This document shows, piece after piece, positions 1 through 11,503 of a stretch of DNA of 25,199 nucleotides. This stretch comes from a virus. A model generated the notes under the pieces. It made no database searches. It saw nothing but the letters and a program-made list of their open reading frames with translations, and had not been told where the DNA came from. Position 1 is the first letter of the stretch. Each line of letters begins with the position of its first letter. The position numbers and the translations under genes are program-made. The stretch is from UHGV virus genome UHGV-0245202. The stretch is one strand, 5' to 3'.

Positions 1-198
1 AATATCAAAATGAAATTAATCAACTATCTGCGCCAGGTGTTAATTTTGATGATATTTAAAATTATTTTTCCAGTTTTTTGATTTTTCAACGCCTGAATAT
101 CGGAAATAGTCAGTGACGAACATCAGTATTTTTACATCATTACGTCCGGGTCATTGTCGGTTTATCTCCTTTTACTTGTGGTAATTGAGGGATAACAA

Positions 199-236
199 CA
201 AAAAAGGTGAGTTTTGCGACTCACCTTTTTTATTTG
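199..236. terminator. Bidirectional rho-independent terminator downstream of mlaA
   Basis: Perfect 8-bp stem AGGTGAGT (205-212) / ACTCACCT (219-226) with 6-nt loop, flanked by an A-run (199-204) on one side and a T-run (227-232) on the other; lies immediately 3' of the mlaA stop at 241. Confidence 0.55.
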
Positions 237-240
237 TTTC

Positions 241-996
241 TTATTCAGAATCAATATCTTTTAAATCATCCTGAATCGCTTGTGCGTTCGGATTTTCCTG
301 CTGTTTGAGTTCGCCGCCATTAGCGATGAAATCATGACGCTGGAAGTACGCTTCGCGCACCATAATATAAGGATCGGACGACTGACGCAGCAGACCATCG
401 GAATCCAGCAGCTGAGCGCGGGTTTCGATCCCTTCAAGCGTCCATTTACCCACAGACATCGGCCAGGTCAGCCAGGAAAGAACCGGGTAAAGACCATCCG
501 CCATATCACCACCATCATCACGCAGCGTGAAGCTACCGTAGAACGGTAACTGAACGTAAGGCCCATAACCCACGCCATAATGACCAAGCGTACTACCGAA
601 GCGGTGAGGTTCAGTCCGTTGCAGTTTCGGGTTCGCCATCCCTGCAACATCAATAAAGCCGCCCATCCCCAAAATGGTGTTCAGGAAAAAGCGGGTAAAG
701 TGGACCATCCCCTGATAAGGGTCGCCCTGCAAGAAGTAGTTAACCATCACCGCAGGTTCTTCAAGGTTGCCAGTAAAGTTGCTCAAACCATTACGCGCCG
801 GTTGCGGAACATAATCACGCCAGGCGACAGCGACCGGTCGAACAATATACGGGTCTAATACGTTGAAGTTGAAGTTGTACATGGTGCGGTTGAACCCTTC
901 TAACGGGTCAGAACGCCCTTGCTGATCTGTACCGGAACTCGCACACCCCACCAGAAGCGTAGTTCCCAGAGCAAGCGCCGACAGGCGAAGCTTCAT
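241..996 (-). CDS. mlaA: Outer-membrane lipoprotein MlaA (VacJ), phospholipid transport
   Basis: 251-aa ORF; N-terminal lipoprotein signal MKLRLSALALGTTLLVGC with lipobox LVGC; sequence recognised as MlaA/VacJ; ATG at 994-996 checked on the reverse strand; chromosomal GC-rich codon usage. Confidence 0.9.
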   Translation of the reverse strand: MKLRLSALALGTTLLVGCASSGTDQQGRSDPLEGFNRTMYNFNFNVLDPYIVRPVAVAWRDYVPQPARNGLSNFTGNLEEPAVMVNYFLQGDPYQGMVHFTRFFLNTILGMGGFIDVAGMANPKLQRTEPHRFGSTLGHYGVGYGPYVQLPFYGSFTLRDDGGDMADGLYPVLSWLTWPMSVGKWTLEGIETRAQLLDSDGLLRQSSDPYIMVREAYFQRHDFIANGGELKQQENPNAQAIQDDLKDIDSE

Positions 997-1289
997 AAAT
1001 GTCTCCCTGTTTTTTTATGGCTTATGCAGTTTGCCATCCATGACGGAACGATACCGTATCCGCCTGTTTAGGTGTGGGCGATTGTAACAGCACGTCAACT
1101 GATGTCCAGACGCCCTGATTTGCTGATTTGATCATAGCCTGGTAATCGCCGCCCTGTAGGCTACTTGATTCTATAGAAACAGAAAAAGGCAAACGCAGCC
1201 TTTTCTACATTTTCAGAGTAACTCCCGCCAGTTGCGAGCAAAAAAGCCGCTACGCTTTAGCTATACGTGCTAATTCAAGAGAAGAGACC

Positions 1290-2222
1290 ATGGACAACGA
1301 CAAAATTGATCAACACAGCGACGAAATTGAAGTTGAGAGCGAAGAAAAAGAGCGCGGCAAAAAAATAGAAATAGATGAAGACCGACTCCCCTCCCGGGCG
1401 ATGGCAATTCATGAGCATATCCGCCAGGATGGTGAAAAAGAGCTGGAACGCGACGCAATGGCGCTACTGTGGTCAGCCATTGCGGCGGGTCTGTCGATGG
1501 GCGCTTCGCTACTGGCAAAAGGGATATTTCATGTCGAACTGGAAGGAGTGCCAGGCAGCTTCTTACTGGAGAATCTCGGTTATACCTTTGGTTTTATTAT
1601 CGTCATTATGGCCCGCCAGCAATTATTTACCGAAAACACCGTGACTGCGGTACTACCCGTCATGCAAAAACCGACAATGAGCAACGTCGGCTTACTTATG
1701 CGATTATGGGGCGTCGTGCTGCTGGGTAATATTCTCGGGACAGGTATTGCTGCATGGGCATTTGAATATATGCCTATCTTCAATGAAGAAACTCGCGATG
1801 CATTTGTCAAAATCGGCATGGATGTGATGAAGAACACCCCCAGCGAGATGTTTGCCAACGCGATCATTTCCGGCTGGCTGATCGCCACTATGGTTTGGAT
1901 GTTTCCTGCTGCGGGTGCGGCAAAGATTGTGGTGATTATATTGATGACCTGGCTTATTGCACTGGGTGACACCACCCACATCGTTGTCGGTTCTGTTGAA
2001 ATCCTCTATCTGGTGTTTAACGGCACGCTGCACTGGAGCGATTTCATCTGGCCCTTCGCACTACCTACTTTAGCGGGGAACATCTGCGGCGGCACCTTTA
2101 TCTTCGCGTTAATGAGTCATGCACAGATTCGTAACGACATGAGCAACAAGCGTAAAGCAGAAGCACGCCAAAAAGCAGAACGTGCGGAAAACATTAAGAA
2201 AAATGATAAAAACCCAGCATAA
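1290..2222 (+). CDS. yfdC: Inner-membrane protein YfdC, formate/nitrite transporter (FNT) family
   Basis: 310-aa ORF with multiple hydrophobic segments and a charged N-terminal tail; recognised as E. coli YfdC, the gene that lies between mlaA and argW; ATG at 1290 preceded by GAAGAGA. Confidence 0.85.
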   Translation: MDNDKIDQHSDEIEVESEEKERGKKIEIDEDRLPSRAMAIHEHIRQDGEKELERDAMALLWSAIAAGLSMGASLLAKGIFHVELEGVPGSFLLENLGYTFGFIIVIMARQQLFTENTVTAVLPVMQKPTMSNVGLLMRLWGVVLLGNILGTGIAAWAFEYMPIFNEETRDAFVKIGMDVMKNTPSEMFANAIISGWLIATMVWMFPAAGAAKIVVIILMTWLIALGDTTHIVVGSVEILYLVFNGTLHWSDFIWPFALPTLAGNICGGTFIFALMSHAQIRNDMSNKRKAEARQKAERAENIKKNDKNPA

Positions 2223-2257
2223 ATGGCGAGGGTTTAAGCAATCGAGCGGCAGCGTAC

Positions 2258-2286
2258 TTACCCCGCAGTCCATTAGCGGGTATACT
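2258..2286 (+). promoter_or_regulatory. Candidate sigma70 promoter for argW
   Basis: TATACT -10-like hexamer at 2281-2286, 11 nt upstream of the mature tRNA 5' end; weak -35 (TTACCC, 2258-2263) at 17-bp spacing. Pattern-based only. Confidence 0.3.
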
Positions 2287-2297
2287 CATGCCGCATT

Positions 2298-2372
2298 GTC
2301 CTCTTAGTTAAATGGATATAACGAGCCCCTCCTAAGGGCTAATTGCAGGTTCGATTCCTGCAGGGGACACCA
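2298..2372 (+). tRNA. argW: tRNA-Arg, anticodon CCU
   Basis: 75-nt sequence GTCCTCTTAGTTAAATGGATATAACGAGCCCCTCCTAAGGGCTAATTGCAGGTTCGATTCCTGCAGGGGACACCA; 7-bp acceptor stem with one G-U pair, T-loop GGTTCGATTCC, anticodon loop CTCCTAA with CCT at 2331-2333, encoded 3' CCA. Immediately followed by an integrase gene, the classic prophage attachment arrangement. Confidence 0.93.
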
Positions 2373-2467
2373 TTTATCAGTTCGCTCCCATCCGTACCAG
2401 TCCGCAAAATCCCCTGAATATCAAGCCTTCCGTAGATTCACAGTTCGTAATGGTTCGCGTCAGATCG

Positions 2468-2497
2468 TTGACAGCCGCACTCCATGACGGGTAAAAA
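2468..2497 (+). promoter_or_regulatory. Candidate integrase promoter
   Basis: Consensus -35 TTGACA at 2468-2473 and TAAAAA at 2492-2497 (18-bp spacer), about 37 bp upstream of the int ATG at 2534. Pattern-based only. Confidence 0.3.
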
Positions 2498-2533
2498 GTG
2501 GATAAAATAATTTTACCCACCGGATTTTTACCC

Positions 2534-3691
2534 ATGCTCACCGTTAAGCAGATTGAAGCAGCAAAGCCGAAAGAAAAACCATACCGCCTACTCGATGGTA
2601 ATGGCCTGTACCTTTATGTCCCTGTGTCAGGGAAAAAGGTATGGCAGCTTCGCTACAAGATTGACGGTAAGGAGAAAATCCTGACCGTAGGAAAATATCC
2701 GCTAATGACTTTGCAGGAGGCAAGAGATAAAGCATGGACCGCGAGGAAAGACATCTCGGTTGGCATCGATCCGGTAAAAGCGAAAAAGGCTTCGTCTAAC
2801 AACAATTCCTTTAGTGCGATTTACAAGGAATGGTACGAGCACAAGAAGCAAGTCTGGTCAGTAGGCTATGCAACTGAACTTGCAAAAATGTTTGATGACG
2901 ACATTTTACCTATCATCGGCGGCCTTGAAATTCAGGATATTGAGCCGATGCAACTGCTGGAAGTAATCCGCAGATTTGAAGATCGCGGTGCAATGGAGCG
3001 AGCCAACAAAGCCCGCAGAAGATGCGGCGAGGTTTTCCGTTACGCTATTGTCACTGGTAGGGCTAAATATAACCCGGCACCTGACCTTGCTGACGCCATG
3101 AAGGGATACCGCAAGAAAAACTTCCCGTTTCTTCCTGCAGACCAGATCCCGGCATTTAACAAAGCACTGGCAACATTTTCAGGAAGCATCGTATCGCTCA
3201 TTGCGACCAAAGTTTTACGCTACACAGCCCTCAGAACAAAAGAGCTTCGTTCCATGCTATGGAAGAACGTCGATTTTGAAAACAGGATTATCACCATCGA
3301 CGCCAGTGTGATGAAGGGACGCAAAATTCATGTGGTTCCTATGTCAGACCAGGTAGTTGAACTTCTCGCTACGCTAAGCTCAATCACTAAACCAGTGTCA
3401 GAGTTTGTTTTTGCCGGGCGCAACGATAAGAAGAAGCCAATCTGCGAGAACGCGGTATTACTTGTGATCAAACAAATCGGCTATGAGGGTCTGGAAAGCG
3501 GTCACGGATTCAGGCATGAATTCAGCACGATTATGAACGAGAACGAATGGCCTGCTGATGCTATTGAAGTGCAACTGGCACATGCCAACGGCGGATCTGT
3601 GCGCGGGATTTACAACCACGCTCAGTATCTCGATAAGCGCAGAGAAATGATGCAGTGGTGGGCAGACTGGCTTGATGAAAAGGTGGAGTGA
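2534..3691 (+). CDS. intS: Tyrosine site-specific integrase, IntS (CPS-53/KpLE1) type
   Basis: 385-aa product from the first ATG (2534); the ORF track start at 2498 is a GTG-initiated extension. Sequence recognised as E. coli IntS (MLTVKQIEAAKPKEKPYRLLDGNGLYLYVP...), with C-terminal catalytic region HGFRHEF and a conserved Tyr near the C-terminus; adjacent to and co-oriented with argW. Confidence 0.9.
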   Translation: MLTVKQIEAAKPKEKPYRLLDGNGLYLYVPVSGKKVWQLRYKIDGKEKILTVGKYPLMTLQEARDKAWTARKDISVGIDPVKAKKASSNNNSFSAIYKEWYEHKKQVWSVGYATELAKMFDDDILPIIGGLEIQDIEPMQLLEVIRRFEDRGAMERANKARRRCGEVFRYAIVTGRAKYNPAPDLADAMKGYRKKNFPFLPADQIPAFNKALATFSGSIVSLIATKVLRYTALRTKELRSMLWKNVDFENRIITIDASVMKGRKIHVVPMSDQVVELLATLSSITKPVSEFVFAGRNDKKKPICENAVLLVIKQIGYEGLESGHGFRHEFSTIMNENEWPADAIEVQLAHANGGSVRGIYNHAQYLDKRREMMQWWADWLDEKVE

Positions 3692-3844
3692 TCCACCTTA
3701 GCCACTATCGAAGAGCACAAAACCTTGCAATCCAGTACAAAGCTTTGTTTGTCTCAGTTTTGTCTCATCAACCACAGCAAGTCATCGATCGATTGAGACT
3801 TGGATGATAGACTTCATGCCTTTGATTATTAGCTGATAGAAGAA

Positions 3845-4207
3845 ATGTTAAAGCTATTTGCAAAGTACACCTCGATTGGTGTGCTGAACACACTTATACA
3901 CTGGGTAGTTTTTGGTGTATGTATCTATGTCGCGCATACAAACCAAGCTCTTGCAAACTTCGCAGGTTTTGTTGTGGCTGTGAGTTTTAGCTTCTTCGCG
4001 AATGCAAAATTCACATTCAAAGCATCAACTACAACGATGCGCTACATGTTATATGTCGGGTTCATGGGAACACTGAGTGCTACTGTTGGATGGGCTGCTG
4101 ATAGATGTTCACTTCCTCCAATTGTCACTCTTGTTACATTCTCCGCCATCAGCCTGGTGTGCGGTTTCGTCTATTCAAAGTTCATTGTCTTTAGGGATGC
4201 GAAATGA
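3845..4207 (+). CDS. gtrA: GtrA, bactoprenol-linked glucose flippase
   Basis: 120-aa small four-TM protein; recognised as GtrA/YfdG; 4-nt ATGA overlap with the next gene (gtrB ATG 4204, gtrA stop 4205-4207). Confidence 0.9.
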
Positions 4208-5115
4208 AGATATCTCTTGTAGTTCCTGTCTTCAATGAAGAAGAAGCGATACCAATTTTTTATAAAACGGTACGTGAATTCGAAGAGTTGAAGCCATATG
4301 AAGTTGAAATTGTTTTTATAAATGATGGTAGCAAAGACGCTACGGAGTCAATAATTAACGCTTTGGCTGTTTCTGATCCGCTAGTTGTTCCGCTGTCATT
4401 TACACGCAACTTTGGTAAAGAACCAGCATTGTTTGCAGGGTTAGACCATGCAACCGGGGATGCGGTAATCCCAATTGATGTTGACCTGCAAGACCCGATT
4501 GAAGTGATTCCTCATCTTATTGAAAAGTGGCAGGCAGGTGCTGATATGGTGCTTGCTAAACGTTCGGATCGTTCAACCGATGGGAAATTAAAACGAAAAA
4601 CAGCTGAGTGGTTCTACAAACTTCACAATAAAATAAGTAATCCAAAGATCGAGGACAATGTTGGCGACTTTAGACTAATGTCCAGAAATGTTGTTGAGAA
4701 TATTAAACTTCTACCAGAACGAAATCTATTCATGAAAGGAGTTCTAAGCTGGGTTGGTGGAGAAATAAGTATTGTTGAGTATGCCAGAGCGGAACGCATT
4801 GCGGGGACGACTAAATTTAATGGCTGGAAATTATGGAACTTAGCTCTTGAGGGTATAACTGGTTTTTCAACATTTCCTCTACGAATGTGGACATATATAG
4901 GATTATTTGTTGCAACAATATCATTCATGTACGGAGCATGGATGATATTGGATAAAATTTTATTTGGAAACAACGTACCAGGTTATCCATCACTTCTTGT
5001 TTCTATTCTTTTTCTTGGTGGGATTCAATTGATTGGCATTGGAGTCCTAGGTGAATATATAGGAAGAATCTATATTGAAACCAAAAAAAGACCTAGATAC
5101 CTTATAAAAAAATAG
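4204..5115 (+). CDS. gtrB: GtrB, bactoprenol glucosyltransferase (GT2 family)
   Basis: 303-aa product with an N-terminal GT2 domain ([17 protein letters not shown]-x-D region) and two C-terminal TM helices; recognised as GtrB/YfdH. Confidence 0.9.
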
Positions 5116-5122
5116 GATGCAT

Positions 5123-6577
5123 ATGAACTTTTTAATTAGAGAAAGCGAAAAGAAAGCATTTGCTTTATTATTTGCAACCGCATTGCTTTTTATATATCCA
5201 TTAATGCATTATGGTATATATTTTCGAGACGATCTACACAGATCTGTAACTGGATACTATGGATGGAGCGGCCTTGGTAGACCACTCGCAGATATAGTTA
5301 TAAAAGTAGCATCAGCAAGCGGAGATAGACTATTAGATATTTTCCCGTATAACTTAATACTATCTTGCGCCATGCTATCACTAGCATGTATACATATAGC
5401 TAGATTATTACAACATCTAAACATAAAAAAGCCAACGTTTTGTGCCTCATTGTTTATCTTTAATCCATTTTTTCTACAAAATCTAGCTTATAGATTTGAC
5501 TCCACAGGAATGTCTTTAGCACTTCTTCTTTGTGCGCTTTCATACACCTACCAAAATAACAATATTTATATATCATTGGTAATTAAAATTTTACTTGGTG
5601 TCGCAACACTTTCACTGTATCAACCATGTGCAAATCTATTCATTGGGTTGCTATCAATCGAGCTCTCTGCATTATTCATTACTAACAACACAAACAACAA
5701 AAAATTATTTTTAACATTAATCAAAAAAGCTGGAGTATTTTTATCATTCTACTCTATTTACTTTCTAATCGTAGCAAGAATATGGGGTTCAGAAAACAAT
5801 AGATCTGAAATCGTCAAGTTAAATACAGATGGATTAAATCATATTTATAATACATTCCAAAGACTCAATACCTTGCTTGAGTCATTTTTTAATGGTCCAG
5901 TTATTTTTTATTTTATACCACCGGTTATTTTATTATTTATTTTTATTATCCTTACCGTTTACAAAAATAGAAACAACTCGTTGGCAACCAAGATGCTTTT
6001 ATTATTGCTATCATTGAGCTCGGCATATATATCTCTTCTTGGGCCGACATTTATTCTTGTTGATGCGCCCGTATTTCCAAGAACGCTGGTAAGCTTCTCA
6101 ATCCTCTTTGTTTTATTTTCCATGTATATAATTTCACTTTGTGATAAGCTAAAATGCATTGCATTAATACCTGTAGTAACAGTAATAGCATTTAGCTCTC
6201 AATTTGCCAACGCACTGAACACCCAAAGAGAACATGAGAACTTTGTTTTAAATATGGTTGCATATGATTTAATGAATATAAATGGAATACAAAAAATTAA
6301 GACAGTGGGCAAGATAAGATTCAGTAAAAGAGCTGAATTACTCACAAATGATAAGCCTCTAATAAGCCAATCTATAAGCAGGGCTACTGAATTTCTTGCA
6401 ACTTATCAAATGGTTAACAAGGGCTTGAAAGGTGTAAGCGATGGTTATGGCATAGAAAAATCCAATAAGGAAGAGTTGGACTCATTCAAAAGCAATGGTG
6501 TTAAACCATATGTTGATAACAATGAATACTCAATATATGAAAATAATGGCGTTGCAATTGTAGTTTTTAAGGGATAA
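5123..6577 (+). CDS. Serotype-specific O-antigen glucosyltransferase (GtrC-type, third gene of the gtr operon)
   Basis: About 484 aa from the ATG at 5123 (AGGA 5 nt upstream; the alternative in-frame ATG at 5117 overlaps that RBS). Very hydrophobic polytopic N-terminal two-thirds with a soluble C-terminal domain; strongly AT-rich, unlike the flanking DNA; positioned directly after gtrA and gtrB. Specificity cannot be inferred from sequence. Confidence 0.75.
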   Translation: MNFLIRESEKKAFALLFATALLFIYPLMHYGIYFRDDLHRSVTGYYGWSGLGRPLADIVIKVASASGDRLLDIFPYNLILSCAMLSLACIHIARLLQHLNIKKPTFCASLFIFNPFFLQNLAYRFDSTGMSLALLLCALSYTYQNNNIYISLVIKILLGVATLSLYQPCANLFIGLLSIELSALFITNNTNNKKLFLTLIKKAGVFLSFYSIYFLIVARIWGSENNRSEIVKLNTDGLNHIYNTFQRLNTLLESFFNGPVIFYFIPPVILLFIFIILTVYKNRNNSLATKMLLLLLSLSSAYISLLGPTFILVDAPVFPRTLVSFSILFVLFSMYIISLCDKLKCIALIPVVTVIAFSSQFANALNTQREHENFVLNMVAYDLMNINGIQKIKTVGKIRFSKRAELLTNDKPLISQSISRATEFLATYQMVNKGLKGVSDGYGIEKSNKEELDSFKSNGVKPYVDNNEYSIYENNGVAIVVFKG

Positions 6578-6605
6578 TACGCAACTAAAATAGTTCTGCA
6601 TTGCT

Positions 6606-6643
6606 CATTAAGACCAATCAATCACATCAGATTGGTCTTAATG
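6606..6643. terminator. Perfect 14-bp inverted repeat (hairpin) between the convergent gtr type gene and tailspike
   Basis: CATTAAGACCAATC (6606-6619) and GATTGGTCTTAATG (6630-6643) are exact reverse complements with a 10-nt loop, in the 87-bp gap between two convergent stop codons. No clean U-run follows on either strand, so it may be a terminator or RNA-stability/processing hairpin or a protein-binding site. Confidence 0.45.
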
Positions 6644-6664
6644 AAATTACGCCGCGACCAGTTA

Positions 6665-8638
6665 TCACCTCCATTTAAACCGAGGTGAATATTCACCGTT
6701 ATTGAATCTTCCTATACTTACCTGTATTGTCGCCGGAGAATCAGAAAGAACCTCGGTGCTATGCAATGATAGTATAAGTGATGATGATTCTATATCTCTA
6801 TCTATTTCGATCACATAACCATAATCTCGTTCTGGCTCTGTAAAATAAGCTATTGGGTTTCCGTTTGCTGCAATGGTAAATCTTCCACCAACAAATTTAC
6901 CCTTGAACATAACATGTATTTTTATCCGACTAACTCCCTTCGGTAAAACACAACCAGCATTTAATGATGCTGTAGAGTTTATATTGAAATCTTTCCTTAT
7001 CACTGTGTATGGAATTGCATATAAAGCTTCAGCAAAGCTTGATTGAGACTGATACTCTGTCGCAGCAATAGAGCTCCCCCCCATAATTCTAAATCCTCCA
7101 ACACCGGAGAACACACTATTAAAAGCATCCACAGCTTTCGTAAAGTTACCAATACAAACGGGTGTTTCTGCATCATTAATGAATTGTTCCCTTGAATACA
7201 ATGTCACACTGTTTATATATGTACTTTTATAACCACCAATATCATCAGGGCTTAAAAATCCATACCCATTGGAACCATCAGATACGCCATTAAATTCTGT
7301 ATAATAGCTACAAAATTCGTTAGATGATCTTGGAGATGTCTCAATCCATCCAAATCCAAAATTTCTCTCTGACTGAATATTGCTATAAGTACACCCACTA
7401 CTCCGCGTTATAAGGCCTGCGCCACTATAGCGCGTCGCTGAGTCTGGTGATGGGTCAAAATCACCATTGCGACCATTTGTGTGTGTACGTATACGTAAAA
7501 AACTAACAGAATTTACAGCCAAATCATCAGTTTCTCCTTGAGTAGGATAACCAATAACAACTCCGCGCCCATAGTTATCATGTGCAACTATTGTTCCAAA
7601 TGAACAGAACCAAGACTGATAAACTGATATGCCGACGACACGAGCATTTATGGCTGTAATATTGTCGCAATGTGACTCATTTGTAAAATATCTAAAATAA
7701 AATCCATTTGTCGCCTTATTATCACAATCAGAAATTATATTTGTAATTCTTACTGAGCTTACATCTTCAGTTGGTGTAACTCCAATTGGAGAGCGAGAGC
7801 ATCTAATAACAGCCTTTTTAATTGCAACATCCCCAATCCATTTAATGGTTGTAGCAAATCTATTACCTGCTCGCAGAGAATTTCCATATCCTCTCATATC
7901 CAAGCCATTTGGAGGCACAAACTCATCTGTAATTCCAATAACACCAGCTGGAAGGATTAAAGGTAGTTTATTATCAGATGCGAATTTAGCAGCACTGGTT
8001 AACTCATTAATTGAATCTTTTTCTCCATTTAAATTAACCCCCCACCATTTTAATAGAACTTCTCCATTGATATTTCGTTTCCACCGCCTCCCAATTGCGT
8101 CAATAAGTATTGTTCCTCCATTATCTTGAGATGTAGAATCATACTTATCAATTTCAAATATTCCATTTCCACCATCAAATATATTTCGCACACCATATAC
8201 ATAGCATCTATGCATATTCCCGCTATAATTTCTAATATCTTCGTAATTTGCTCCACCTATATATCCCAAACCGAAGCTTTGAGATAATTGAACTTTAAAT
8301 TGATCAGGTTCATACTTCAGCACATTCGGAAAATAAAACTGCTGAGCACCGTATGCATCATAAACAGCCATAGAATGGCCTTGCACAGTTACGAACTTGG
8401 CAATCTGTCCGTTATATACCGGGTAACCAGCAGCGTTAATGATGATTGGTTGCGAAACAGGAACGTGAGAGCCGTCTTCGTTCTCCACATAAACCTGAAT
8501 CTGGTTTTCAGGATTTACAGGGTCAGTGTCAATTTTACCGATATAAATTTTGCCATTGGCTACAGCTTTAAAAGAACGAGCCATAGTGAAGAGTTGAGAA
8601 GGCATGCTTACCACAACATTTGCGGTGATATCTGACAT
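6665..8638 (-). CDS. Tailspike protein (gp9 position); P22-type N-terminal head-binding domain with a divergent receptor-binding domain
   Basis: 657 aa from the ATG at 8636-8638 (GGAG 9 nt upstream); the ORF track start at 8686 adds 16 codons with no RBS. The first ~110 aa ([11 protein letters not shown]...[21 protein letters not shown]...[13 protein letters not shown]...[10 protein letters not shown]) match the P22 gp9 head-binding domain from memory; the remainder does not resemble the P22 endorhamnosidase domain and is AT-rich. Confidence 0.85.
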
Positions 8639-8663
8639 TTCATTGCTCCAGACGAATGATATG

Positions 8664-8686
8664 ATGCAATCACGATGTGATTGCAT
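8664..8686. promoter_or_regulatory. Perfect 23-bp palindrome, candidate operator (Mnt-type) between mnt and the tailspike
   Basis: ATGCAATCAC-GAT-GTGATTGCAT: 10-bp arms that are exact reverse complements around a 3-bp centre, in the 121-bp divergent gap between the tailspike ATG (8638) and the mnt ATG (8760). Confidence 0.4.
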
Positions 8687-8759
8687 ACCGAAATGGTACT
8701 ATTGAGTATTTATCCAGTAGGTTACGATGCCATTCCACCCAACTGGTGAGGCATCACGG

Positions 8760-9020
8760 ATGTACAGCAAATACGACGAGGCGCAGTTTCACTTGAGACT
8801 TCCGCATGAACTCCACGCGAAAATTAAGCAGCGTGCGAAGATGAATAACAGGTCGCTGAACTCAGAGATAATTGCAGCGATTGAAGAATCATTGGATAAA
8901 CAAAGCTCTGCATCAGTTTACATTGACGATGCAGAGCGTATGGCAGAACAACAATCGGATATGGTTAAGAAAATTGTCTTTGATACGCTCAAGAAGCTAT
9001 ATAAAAAAGACAGTAGCTAA
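8760..9020 (+). CDS. mnt: Mnt-like ribbon-helix-helix repressor (immI-type)
   Basis: 86 aa from the ATG at 8760 (GGTGAGG upstream); the ORF track start at 8727 adds 11 codons. N-terminal RHH beta-strand motif (FHLRLPHELHAKIKQRA...GRSLNSEII) and a C-terminal tail DAERMAEQQSDMVKKIVFDTLKKLYKK matching the P22 Mnt tetramerisation helix from memory; located at the P22 immI position and transcribed opposite to the late genes, as P22 mnt is. Confidence 0.8.
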   Translation: MYSKYDEAQFHLRLPHELHAKIKQRAKMNNRSLNSEIIAAIEESLDKQSSASVYIDDAERMAEQQSDMVKKIVFDTLKKLYKKDSS

Positions 9021-9040
9021 CCATCCGTTACGGAGGATTT

Positions 9041-9118
9041 ATGCAAAGAGATATGCTGAATATTGCGTTCTACATATTTGGTTTTTGCACGTTCCTGGTG
9101 TTTGCGAAGCTATTCTGA
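9041..9118 (+). CDS. Putative 25-aa hydrophobic small protein (MQRDMLNIAFYIFGFCTFLVFAKLF); unannotated small ORF
   Basis: ATG at 9041 preceded by GGAGG (9032-9036, 4-nt spacer); 25 codons ending TGA at 9116-9118; a short polar N-terminus followed by a ~20-residue hydrophobic stretch. Lies 21 bp after the mnt stop on the same strand, and its 3' end overlaps the convergent gp16 stop codon (9110-9112). Below the 60-aa cut-off of the ORF track. Could be chance. Confidence 0.25.
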   Translation: MQRDMLNIAFYIFGFCTFLVFAKLF

Positions 9119-11503
9119 CAACGCATCAGACTTGGCACCCTGAGTAAGGGCGTTAATGGCCTTTTGCGCCTGCTGCATGGCTTTCTCAAACGCTGTTGAT
9201 CCGCGTGGGGTGTTTGCCATTCGGAGCATTGCATTTCTGAATGGCTCGCTCTCATAGGCGCGCGTAAGAAGTCCGTAGCTTACCGCTGCGCCAGTTGTCG
9301 CAGGGTTCATTGCTGTCCCATATCCGATAATGAACGGGATGGTTTGCTGCCCTGTTGGTGTTGTTACTGCCGCTTTTGCAGCCTGCTGCGTGGATTGCAG
9401 GTAGTTTTTCAATCCTTTCAGATAAGCGGCTTCCTGACCTTTAAATGTGATGCCAGTCTGGTTTTGCAGGATGTTAAGCTGTCGAAGGAACTGGTCAGGG
9501 GAACCACCTGATTTCTCCATCGCCTTTCCAATGATGCCATTGCGCATTTGCGCCCTGCCAACACGACCAACTGAGTTATACAGCGTCTTAATTTCCGATT
9601 TGTTCTTGCTGAATAGCATGTTGTTGACAACTTCCGGCGTCAGGTCGCCTTTCATGAGAACATTCTTCAGCCTGGTATTCTTTAGTTTCGCCGCTTCGTC
9701 AGCGTAGACGGCATTGGCCTGCTGATATTTACGGAGAGTATCGTTGCCAAGATTCTGACCAATGGCACCATTGATATCGTCGGTCATTGCCTTGTAAACG
9801 CGCTGAATGGCAGCATCGGAACGGTTTGGTAACACTGGTCGCTCCCCCTTCACGTCCATTCTGAACTGGCTGCGCAGATCGCTTAATTGCTTCAAATCCA
9901 GATTTACCGGACCATCAGGACCAGCATTGCGAACAAGCTCATCACGATAGGACTGAAGTTTTGAAATAGTCTCGTTATCAGCAACCTTACCAAGCTTCTG
10001 CAGGTTAGATATTTCTGTATCAATCTGCTGAATTGCTCTTGCAGGCTGAATGTTTATTCCCGCCATAGCATTCTGAACCTGCTCAAGACGGTTCCCTGCA
10101 GCACGACGAATTCCTGATGTTTTCGCTTTAAGGCTGTCAATAACAACAGCTGGATCATACTCACCGAATTTATCAGCAAATCTCTGCACCAACTGGCTTC
10201 TCGCTTCCTGTTGCGTTGCTCTCATTCCGCTTGTGCCAGCCAGGGGGATATTTTCCGCTGTCGTCTGCGCCATTTTTCCGACGCGGGAAATGGGTTGTAA
10301 CAGGTCTGTGGTGTGCAGAGGAACTCCTTCACGTTCTGCAAATCTGATAGCCTGTTGCGCTTCTGGTGCTATCGAACCACGAACACCACGATAAGCAGCG
10401 CCTAATCCACGTCCGGCAGCGTTAATAGCACCGCCAGCCAGCACACCAACGCCTAAATCGGTGGCGAGTGCTTCCGCATCATCTTTCGCACTGTTTGCAG
10501 CAAGTGATCCAACTGCGTTTTCTGCGAGAAGGCGAGTTGCCCCCTGAGCAATTCGACCAGCAAGTGTTGGTGCCTGTGCTGCCGCTCTCTCAACGCCAGC
10601 AGGAGTGAGGTAAGGCAATGCTTCAGCAAATACCCTTCCCTCTGTCGTTTGTGGAGTCAGCGCGCCTTGCTGAAGGCCAAAGTCCTGCTCTAATCCCTGC
10701 GTTGTTACTCGTGGTGCTGGTTGATATGTACCATCGCCAATGCCGAGTTTACCGCCAGCCCAAGCCGCCGCGCTTGTTACAGCATCAGTGAGTTCAGCAG
10801 GTATGTTCGCTACGTTGATTCCTGCCTGTAGTAAGCCTCGCCCGGTTTCAGCAAGTCCATTACCAAGGTCAGACATTATTCCGCCTTGCTGCTGAACAGG
10901 TTTCGGTGCGACAGAACTTACGGGTTGAGGTGGCTGCTGACTGGCTGCCTGCTGCTCAATCTGAGCAAATGGATTATTTGGGTCTGACTGCACGCCTGAT
11001 GCCGATACTTGTTCGGATGACTGTGCTTCCAGTTGTGCAAACGGGTTGTTAGGGTCTTGCTGAGGATGTACCTTTGCAGAGGTGGCGCGCTGTTCGACTG
11101 TTGAGTCTGTCACCGGGTCACCCGCCCATTGAGCAAAGCGATCATCAACGTAACCGCGGCCTTCAGGTCCTGGCGTATATTCACCACGCTTTGCCTTCAT
11201 AACGTTGCCGGGACCGTCGTGATAAGCCTGAAGAGCGTCACGCCAGTTACCAAACTGCTGGTACATCTTTGCCAGATAGCGCGCGCCAGCGTCAGCCTGA
11301 TATTCGGGGTTTTGCATTTGCTCATCGGTATAACCCATATCACGCCATGTCCCAGGCATGACCTGAGTCAATCCTACAGCCCCGGCGGAGCTTACTGCGG
11401 CAGGGTTGTAAGAAGACTCCTTGGCACCCAGTGCAGTCATCAACCCTTCTGGCACACCGTAACGTGCGCCAGCCTGCTCTAACAAATCACGGTAATTAGC
11501 CAT
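9110..11503 (-). CDS. Ejection (DNA-transfer) protein at the gp16 position, with an N-terminal lytic transglycosylase (SLT) domain
   Basis: 797 aa; last gene of the gp7-gp20-gp16 ejection block by position. The N-terminal ~130 aa carry family-1 lytic transglycosylase motifs (GAKESSYNPAAVSSAGAVGLTQVMPGTW ... ALQAYHDGPGNV); this is followed by a Q/P-rich linker with a duplicated DPNNPFAQ(L/I)E motif and a long Ala/Gly-rich C-terminal region. Start codon abuts the upstream stop (TAA at 11504-11506, ATG at 11501-11503). Confidence 0.85.
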   Translation of the reverse strand: MANYRDLLEQAGARYGVPEGLMTALGAKESSYNPAAVSSAGAVGLTQVMPGTWRDMGYTDEQMQNPEYQADAGARYLAKMYQQFGNWRDALQAYHDGPGNVMKAKRGEYTPGPEGRGYVDDRFAQWAGDPVTDSTVEQRATSAKVHPQQDPNNPFAQLEAQSSEQVSASGVQSDPNNPFAQIEQQAASQQPPQPVSSVAPKPVQQQGGIMSDLGNGLAETGRGLLQAGINVANIPAELTDAVTSAAAWAGGKLGIGDGTYQPAPRVTTQGLEQDFGLQQGALTPQTTEGRVFAEALPYLTPAGVERAAAQAPTLAGRIAQGATRLLAENAVGSLAANSAKDDAEALATDLGVGVLAGGAINAAGRGLGAAYRGVRGSIAPEAQQAIRFAEREGVPLHTTDLLQPISRVGKMAQTTAENIPLAGTSGMRATQQEARSQLVQRFADKFGEYDPAVVIDSLKAKTSGIRRAAGNRLEQVQNAMAGINIQPARAIQQIDTEISNLQKLGKVADNETISKLQSYRDELVRNAGPDGPVNLDLKQLSDLRSQFRMDVKGERPVLPNRSDAAIQRVYKAMTDDINGAIGQNLGNDTLRKYQQANAVYADEAAKLKNTRLKNVLMKGDLTPEVVNNMLFSKNKSEIKTLYNSVGRVGRAQMRNGIIGKAMEKSGGSPDQFLRQLNILQNQTGITFKGQEAAYLKGLKNYLQSTQQAAKAAVTTPTGQQTIPFIIGYGTAMNPATTGAAVSYGLLTRAYESEPFRNAMLRMANTPRGSTAFEKAMQQAQKAINALTQGAKSDALSE

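Follow-up and report, generated by a model that had tools for sequence, protein, structure and literature searches.

A gtrABC lysogenic-conversion operon in a P22-like prophage at Escherichia coli argW, most probably directed at the O81 O-antigen and linked to the tailspike receptor domain

Organization of the locus

The window (the whole stretch of DNA that was analysed, 25,199 nt of the virus genome UHGV-0245202) contains, at positions 3845-6577, three genes that a first-pass annotation, made from the letters without database searches, had described as a gtrABC lysogenic-conversion operon whose third gene and the neighbouring tailspike travel as one exchangeable cassette. Judged by sequence and gene content, this region is a gtrABC operon, carried by a P22-like (Lederbergvirus-type) prophage that has integrated at argW in E. 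coli, and we propose that the acceptor of its type-specific enzyme GtrC is most probably the O81 O-antigen. Our listing of open reading frames (ORFs) returned the same coordinates, sizes and orientations as before, with the integrase and tailspike genes as neighbours (Table 1), and the 484 amino acids (aa) originally given for the third protein correspond to translation from the second ATG. This start has AGGA 5 nt upstream and agrees with most RefSeq annotations and with the database copy P0001. The operon is compact: a 4-nt overlap joins gtrA to gtrB, and the gtrB stop codon lies 1 or 7 nt from the gtrC start, depending on the start chosen. The tailspike gene is convergent with gtrC and separated from it by a gap of 87 nt; beyond it follow an Arc/Mnt-like repressor gene and then, on the minus strand, the P22-type ejection, head and packaging genes. 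On the other side, the gene order mlaA-yfdC-argW-intS is common to the window and the K-12 prophage CPS-53, and IntS is 99.5% identical to K-12 IntS and 99.2% identical to the integrase of phage HF4s.

Table 1. Features of the argW prophage locus (positions are those of the window)
Feature	Position	Strand	Details
mlaA	241-996	minus	host gene, left end of window
yfdC	1290-2222		host gene, left end of window
argW, tRNA-Arg(CCU)	2298-2372	plus	integration site; ARAGORN
Left prophage border, attL core	~2351-2372		start of homology to the no107 (2358) and KSC207 (2351) copies
intS	2498-3691	plus	tyrosine integrase IntS; likely start 2534, giving 385 aa; Pfam Phage_integrase, Phage_int_M, Arm-DNA-bind_3
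int-gtrA intergenic region	3692-3844	plus	153 nt; presumed gtr promoter/leader
gtrA	3845-4207	plus	120 aa; small membrane protein
gtrB	4204-5115	plus	303 aa; glycosyltransferase family 2 (GT2) bactoprenol (undecaprenyl phosphate, Und-P) glucosyltransferase
gtrC, type-specific	5117-6577	plus	486 aa; likely start 5123, giving 484 aa; predicted GT-C fold
Perfect 15-bp inverted repeat (hairpin)	6605-6645		between the convergent gtrC and tailspike genes
P22-type tailspike	6665-8686	minus	ORF of 673 aa; likely start 8638, giving 657 aa
Tailspike head-binding domain	~8282-8638	minus	
Tailspike beta-helix receptor/depolymerase domain	6665-8281	minus	
Low-GC3 'recognise and mask' block	~4600-8500		3' half of gtrB, gtrC, hairpin, receptor domain, most of the head-binding domain

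GtrA and GtrB belong to the conserved gtr families

The gene set has the composition of a gtrABC operon, with a small GtrA/DPMS protein encoded first, a GT2-type GtrB second and a variable polytopic protein third, all tightly packed. GtrA matched Pfam PF04138 (GtrA_DPMS_TM, E 1.9e-13) and phrog_2224 of the PHROGs collection (E 2e-70) and is 97.5% identical to K-12 YfdG and 79% identical to P22 GtrA, while GtrB matched PF00535 (Glycos_transf_2, E 1.7e-31) together with phrog_841 and phrog_34335 and shares 91% identity with YfdH, 90% with SfII GtrB and 87% with P22 GtrB. PHROGs labels the three products as GtrA-, GtrB- and GtrC-like O-antigen conversion proteins; in NCBIfam, gtrA, gtrC and the tailspike are not covered by any model. 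With these family assignments, and with GtrA and GtrB 79-97.5% identical to characterised proteins, the initial identification of the operon was borne out. At the DNA level, gtrA and gtrB together are 83-86% identical to their counterparts in SfI, SfII, SfIV, SfV and HF4s, with homology ending at the gtrB stop codon, and a megablast of the operon against phages matched gtrA and gtrB and nothing else.

GtrC is a new sequence type within a known scheme

In the gtr family the third gene fixes the position and linkage of the glucose on the O-antigen. The third protein of the window matched Pfam PF14264 (Glucos_trans_II, E 1.7e-28) and, end to end, phrog_4829 (E 8e-65). Among approximately 50,000 phage records, its closest protein matches were in Hafnia phage Meifeng (35% identity) and P22 GtrC (27%), and gtrC had no near DNA match in the same records. 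BLASTP against characterised enzymes gave P22 GtrC as the best of those compared, with 27.5% identity over 432 aa, and no significant match to GtrI, GtrII, GtrIV, GtrV, YfdI or HF4s GtrC, GtrX and GtrIc lying outside the comparison. The homology comparison that had been suggested on first pass therefore found the third gene not to be the same as any characterised Gtr enzyme compared, and by its sequence the protein is a type-specific enzyme of uncharacterised specificity, that is, a new GtrC sequence type in the known gtrABC scheme of P22-like phages.

Searching PDB sequences with GtrC gave no match. Hydropathy analysis gave some 9-11 hydrophobic segments within aa 1-367 and a hydrophilic stretch of about 110 residues at the C-terminus, and an AlphaFold model built with 17 homologues (mean predicted local distance difference test score, pLDDT, 86.9; predicted template modelling score 0.86) was helical up to aa 384 with a small alpha/beta domain at 391-483. 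The polytopic membrane N-terminus and the soluble C-terminal domain that had been read from the sequence earlier are thus seen by both approaches, and in the model the multi-helix membrane core has GT-C architecture. An acyltransferase-type 'GtrC' of the Salmonella family 2 / BTP1 kind was ruled out by the PF14264 match and the GT-C fold. Directly after the first transmembrane segment, residues D36, D37 and R40 (in RDDLHR) are invariant in the 17 homologues, down to 23% identity. GT-C enzymes carry catalytic acidic residues at the position of the first extracytoplasmic loop, and the RDDLHR loop would accordingly lie in the periplasm; a positive-inside count using the helix limits of the model gave no usable topology signal. 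The co-operonic GtrA and GtrB suggest that the sugar donor is polyprenyl-phosphate-linked.

The base composition of gtrC is unusual, with a GC content of 0.322 and a GC content at third codon positions (GC3) of 0.271. GC3 is 0.52 in int, 0.43 in gtrA and 0.29 in gtrB, and about 0.5 in the rest of the prophage, in line with the initial description of the third gene as AT-rich. The tailspike receptor domain, with GC3 0.230 as opposed to 0.378 for the head-binding domain, shares this composition, as had likewise been claimed. The O81 O-antigen biosynthesis genes have GC3 values of 0.19-0.32, compared with 0.52-0.54 for the flanking gnd and galF, and in virulent phages the receptor-domain homologues show 0.33-0.37 against 0.47-0.57 for their neighbours.

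The tailspike combines a P22 head-binding domain with a distinct receptor domain

The protein encoded opposite gtrC has the two parts of a P22-like tailspike, an N-terminal head-binding domain and a parallel beta-helix receptor domain. Pfam places the P22 head-binding domain at residues 17-129 (PF09008, E 1e-66), and PDB sequence matches to this part were to the N-domains of the Sf6 and P22 tailspikes. The AlphaFold model of the receptor domain has pLDDT values mostly above 90, and its top Foldseek matches were the Sf6 and P22 tailspikes, Depo32, K2-2 TSP (Klebsiella), CBA120 TSP2/TSP4 and Pantoea WceF, with E-values against parallel beta-helix depolymerases of 1e-16 to 1e-10. On the basis of this modelled fold and of the O81 association described below, the receptor domain may cleave the O81 polysaccharide. 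It can be proposed as O81-specific, which would help in diagnostics and in predicting the host range of phages.

gtrC and the receptor domain lie in a conserved block of a mosaic prophage

Mismatches against the window were mapped in 13 non-identical E. coli loci, comprising five complete-genome carriers and eight draft loci (of ten examined). In the five complete genomes, mismatch density was around 5% from 3600 to ~4600, dropped to around 0.2% between ~4600 and ~8500 and rose again beyond. The eight draft loci gave the same picture, with 99.0-99.85% identity over 4600-8499, 93.6-94.9% over 3692-4599 and 95.9-98.0% in int. Over all 13 loci the block was 99.0-99.9% identical, and the ejection genes were 93-97% identical to those of the window or not alignable. 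Neither end of the block falls on a gene border, one lying within gtrB and the other within the head-binding domain, and the block coincides with the GC trough. In addition, locus L035 (GCA_042164875.1) is 100% identical to the window over 193-11503, which makes this genome or a clone of it the probable source of the window, and locus L036 (GCA_048029815.1) carries an identical prophage next to a 2.1-kb host flank with 15 mismatches, which points to recent horizontal spread.

Homologous pairs of gtrC and receptor domain were found in two other temperate P22-like loci, making three in total with E. coli. A prophage of Pseudocitrobacter faecalis encodes GtrA, GtrB and GtrC with 89%, 89% and 56% identity to those of the window and a tailspike that is 67% identical over its full length and 65% in the receptor domain; in the metagenomic Logan contig L029, the corresponding values are 52%, 71% and 50%, and 67% for the receptor domain. 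A distant E. coli GtrC, P0012, which is 35% identical and also at argW, has beside it a tailspike without detectable similarity, so that the pairing rule holds only within the GtrC subfamily.

Both parts also occur separately. Phage-free gtrABC islands with a GtrC of 44-52% identity and no tailspike were present in Yokenella and in a Logan contig, and the receptor domain (47-87% identity) was found on other N-terminal adaptors in virulent siphovirus- or podovirus-type contigs that have no gtr genes; the identity between one T7-like copy and the receptor domain of L029 is 89%. The contigs with other adaptors (L024/L025, L027, L030 and L031; Tail_spike_N in some) have virulent siphovirus content (DNA polymerase A, SNF2) or T7-like podovirus content, and they represent candidate lytic phages for O81-like antigens. 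The 'recognise and then mask' cassette postulated in the first-pass annotation is therefore supported: the near-identical block between diverged flanks and the homologous pairs in other taxa speak for it, with the qualification that each part also occurs alone. The sequence comparisons support the conclusion that gtrC and the receptor domain are linked and co-vary in temperate P22-like phages, and they indicate that the receptor domain also moves freely as a module of its own.

A more general proposition, that this GtrC subfamily and receptor-domain family form co-inherited 'lock and mask' pairs across genera of Enterobacteriaceae, is put forward tentatively, and we consider it somewhat doubtful. 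If it were true, one could read from a prophage's GtrC type which receptor its tailspike recognises, and likewise the receptor of virulent phages that have taken over the domain; genome sequences would suffice to predict glucosylated sub-serotypes such as O81-Glc; and the low GC3 that the O81 cluster, gtrC and the receptor domain have in common would be a sign that antigen, mask and lock share a foreign origin. Irrespective of this, the locus provides a clean worked example, with breakpoints mapped, of a recognition domain and a masking enzyme that remain linked while a P22-like genome shuffles.

Decay of the prophage takes several forms. The gtrABC genes are intact after three different IS1 (insertion sequence 1) truncations or insertions in the tailspike gene, each of which cost the prophage most of its length, in ECCHD184 (L021), HZ13 (L033) and SWYHX138.x (L022, SWYHX138.261ft). 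In the horse isolates SWYHX138.x, a gtrABC-tailspike stub is located between IS30 and IS1, beside thrW/proA instead of argW. Conversely, in the O81 strain KSC207 (L002, 11850-11890) intS is followed immediately by the same tailspike: a clean deletion of 2833 bp, corresponding to window positions 3701-6533, has taken out gtrA and gtrB together with the gtr promoter region and has left only the last 44 nt of gtrC; the junction reads CCACCTTA|TATGAAAA and has TA microhomology. In KSC207 (L002) and in no107 (L023) the order xis(torI)-intS-(gtrABC)-tailspike is contiguous, which is the vegetative order. The no107 copy has late and lysis genes on both sides, indicating either a tandem prophage duplication or assembly of a concatemer, and contains many frameshifts that are probably sequencing errors.

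gtrC is associated with the O81 O-antigen cluster

Among 5426 complete E. coli genomes, nine carry gtrC DNA, in each case with a full-length ORF of 99.6-99.9% identity, and eleven carry the O81 wzy gene. O81 wzy is present in eight of the nine gtrC carriers, an association with Fisher p = 8e-23 that is uncorrected for clonality in genomes that are partly clonal. The eleven O81 genomes consist of the eight gtrC carriers, KSC207 and two genomes with neither gtrC nor the tailspike receptor domain. The receptor domain itself was detected in all nine gtrC genomes (truncated in four) and in KSC207, and hence in 9/11 O81 genomes, full or truncated. Furthermore, the GtrC variant found most often in the protein collection bears the source label 'E. 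coli O81:H27', and gtrC differs by 0.14% among carriers that diverge by up to 3.3% in the neighbouring host genes.

The ninth gtrC carrier, FHI_NMBU_03, was considered as a non-O81 strain and rejected as such, as its record is without everything from yeeN to wzxC. In this genome (L019/L020, ends of NZ_CP019455.1) the circular record joins yeeN to wzxC via an IS3 stub and lacks the his operon, wcaKLM and the O-antigen cluster, owing to either a large IS-mediated deletion or a gap in the MinION-based assembly.

According to the title of a chemical study (Zdorovenko et al. 2018, PMID 29738687, cited in PMC7685785), the O-antigens of O81 and of strain HS3-104 differ by the glucosylation of HS3-104 alone. 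HS3-104 is an O81 horse isolate. Taken together with the genome association, this suggests that the acceptor of GtrC is most probably the O81 O-antigen, and that the operon in the window is very probably the determinant of the published glucosylated O81. The HS3-104 gtr cluster reportedly lies elsewhere in the genome. The first-pass annotation had considered the change at the cell surface not deducible from sequence. This holds for the linkage, which is not readable, but the acceptor polymer can be proposed to be O81 from the wzy association, the O81:H27 label and the published glucosylated O81. The locus would thus serve as a sequence marker for a probable glucosylated O81 sub-type, present in 8/11 complete O81 genomes, and is relevant to genome serotyping.

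Regulatory features around the operon

The 153-nt region 5' of gtrA is nearly identical to its counterparts in K-12, HF4s and SfII, all of which, like the window (position 3787), have one GATC upstream of gtrA; P22 has four, arranged as two pairs with 13-bp spacing. Paired GATC sites are said to be the signature of phase variation by Dam and OxyR. The four-GATC signature of P22 is absent from the int-gtrA region of the window, in which OxyR half-sites were not searched for, and with a single GATC a Dam/OxyR switch is not expected here; P22-style phase variation of this operon was rejected on GATC content. A GATC pair 11-13 bp apart does occur upstream of gtrA in Pseudocitrobacter faecalis (L003, 6652-6665) and in L029 (7668-7679), resembling P22.

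The hairpin between gtrC and the tailspike gene has a folding energy of -24 kcal/mol (z -5.75), the 87-nt spacer containing it is 98.8-100% conserved among carriers, and it is likely a bidirectional transcription stop. A consensus scan for promoters and terminators found fewer promoter-like sites than in shuffled sequences and missed this conserved hairpin, which it did not flag because a canonical U-tract is absent.

Comparison with known gtr systems

The arrangement of int and gtrABC facing a convergent tailspike is the canonical one of P22 and HF4s, and the layout is therefore not new. P22, whose GtrC (family 1) is responsible for O:1 glucosylation and whose tailspike is gene 9, has the same order xis-int-gtrA-gtrB-gtrC followed by the convergent tailspike, and in its record, which has this same layout, a promoter is annotated for the operon and a terminator ahead of gene 9. 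GtrA (79%), GtrB (87%) and the head-binding domain (70%) are similar to those of the window, whereas P22 GtrC, despite having the same length of 486 aa and belonging to the same PHROG, is only 27.5% identical, and the P22 receptor domain is unrelated in sequence. The two phages further differ in the position of attP, which is upstream of int in the window (argW) and between int and gtrA in P22 (thrW), and in the four paired GATC sites, absent from the window.

HF4s, a Lederbergvirus shown experimentally to seroconvert the O-antigen of E. coli 4s (O22-like), has the same layout with 99% (integrase), 97.5% (GtrA) and 90% (GtrB) identity, but its 410-aa GtrC shows no BLAST similarity to that of the window, and its receptor domain and host O-antigen differ. 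It is the direct precedent for masking: lysogens of HF4s gain one glucose, adsorption of the phage itself drops from 80% to an undetectable level, and the unrelated O-antigen-dependent phage DT57C is blocked as well. CPS-53 of K-12 (intS-yfdG-yfdH-yfdI) occupies the same argW site with identical flanks and encodes closely related IntS (99.5%), YfdG (97.5%) and YfdH (91%); its 443-aa YfdI, in contrast, is unrelated to the GtrC of the window by BLAST, and no tailspike is left in K-12. The Shigella flexneri phages SfI, SfII, SfIV and SfV have similar gtrA/gtrB DNA (83% identity) and the same operon logic, and PF14264 is named after GtrII, yet their type-specific proteins (GtrI, GtrII, GtrIV and GtrV) gave no significant BLAST match, and they are lambda- or Mu-like myo- or siphoviruses with tail fibres where the window prophage has a tailspike. 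HS3-104, as far as the title of its O-antigen study goes, has the same O81 backbone as proposed here with a glucose side chain and, like the carriers SWYHX138.x, comes from a horse. The locus does not alter how gtr systems are currently understood; what the analysis adds is the O81 assignment, the mapped 3.9-kb gtrB'-gtrC-tailspike block and the homologous pairs of gtrC and receptor domain.

Proposed function and alternative explanations

We propose the following model, whose mechanism is established for the gtr family. GtrB would transfer glucose from uridine diphosphate glucose to undecaprenyl phosphate at the cytoplasmic face of the membrane, GtrA would move Und-P-Glc to the periplasmic face, and the polytopic GT-C enzyme encoded at 5117-6577 would place the glucose on one defined position of the O-antigen repeat, the product being a glucosylated O81 variant such as that described chemically for HS3-104. 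The tailspike receptor domain would recognise, and probably cleave, the same O81 polysaccharide, and glucosylation in the lysogen would then be expected to lower adsorption of this and other O81-specific phages. The ~3.9-kb low-GC block of gtrC, receptor domain and 3' half of gtrB would stay together while the P22-like backbone recombines freely. As a whole, this explanation (a gtrABC conversion operon at argW, O81 as the acceptor, a tailspike directed at the same antigen and a linked block) appears likely to us.

Several points count against it. The donor and acceptor chemistry, the expression and the exclusion phenotype of this locus are inferred, and the host O-antigen cluster lies outside the window. 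The O81 association rests on approximately ten complete genomes, partly clonal, and the link to HS3-104 on a paper title. Since GtrC is just 27% identical to any characterised enzyme, the sugar, the linkage and the acceptor residue are not assignable. Upstream of gtrA, the consensus scan gave no sigma-70-like promoter, and the hairpin at 6605-6645 lacks a canonical U-tract. Lastly, KSC207, an O81 strain, keeps the tailspike prophage with gtr deleted, so that masking is not obligatory for the phage.

Among the alternatives, the most serious one holds that benefit to the host (protection against unrelated O81 phages, evasion of immunity or serum, or gut colonisation) is the main selected function instead of self-exclusion, and that the tailspike is adjacent because this is the standard moron slot of P22-like genomes. 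The intact gtrABC in three independently decayed prophages that are unable to make virions is consistent with this idea, as are the likewise preserved yfdGHI of decayed K-12 CPS-53, the gtrABC relatives in phage-free islands and the blocking of the unrelated DT57C by HF4s conversion. It leaves unexplained, however, the co-variation of the gtrC subfamily with the receptor-domain family in three independent temperate loci, as well as the common borders and composition of the block, and we regard it as a possible but not a favoured explanation.

Retention instead of mobility could also have produced the block. In such a scenario a single recent lysogenisation of an O81 lineage was followed by overwriting of the flanks through recombination with P22-like prophages, int, gtrA and 5' gtrB becoming CPS-53-like alleles and the ejection genes others, and the gtrC-tailspike part was kept as a 'non-replaceable core' because no other alleles work on O81. 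The flanks are indeed mosaic, the approximately 20 E. coli copies examined were all at argW, and no E. coli locus was found that pairs this gtrC with a different tailspike. Against it stand the 99.7-99.9% identity of the block across hosts that show up to 3.3% divergence in the chromosomal genes next to the prophage, the identical whole prophage in two host backgrounds (L035 and L036) and the movement of the receptor domain between temperate and virulent phages at 80-89% identity. Retention and exchange predict the same linkage and are hard to separate on these data; we judge retention on its own to be rather unlikely.

An acceptor other than the O81 repeat, for example an O-antigen sharing an epitope, the enterobacterial common antigen or the lipopolysaccharide core, would reduce the O81 association to clonal hitch-hiking. 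The small number of independent lineages and the three O81 genomes without gtrC are compatible with such an acceptor, and specificity has never been measured for this GtrC subfamily. Yet the carriers belong to clearly different chromosomal backgrounds and come from hosts on several continents, the receptor domain, full or truncated, is present in 9/11 O81 genomes, and a glucosylated O81 exists, going by the title cited in PMC7685785, which together make another acceptor improbable. That gtrC is a silent or inactive relic of a cryptic prophage, as might be suspected from the consensus scan, which gave no promoter-like site, and from the several carriers that are prophage remnants, is very improbable in view of an ORF kept at full length, with 99.6-99.9% identity, in each of the nine complete genomes, the presence of gtrC in 447 blocks of the assembly collection, catalytic-loop residues invariant to 23% identity and the preservation of gtrC while neighbouring structural genes decay.

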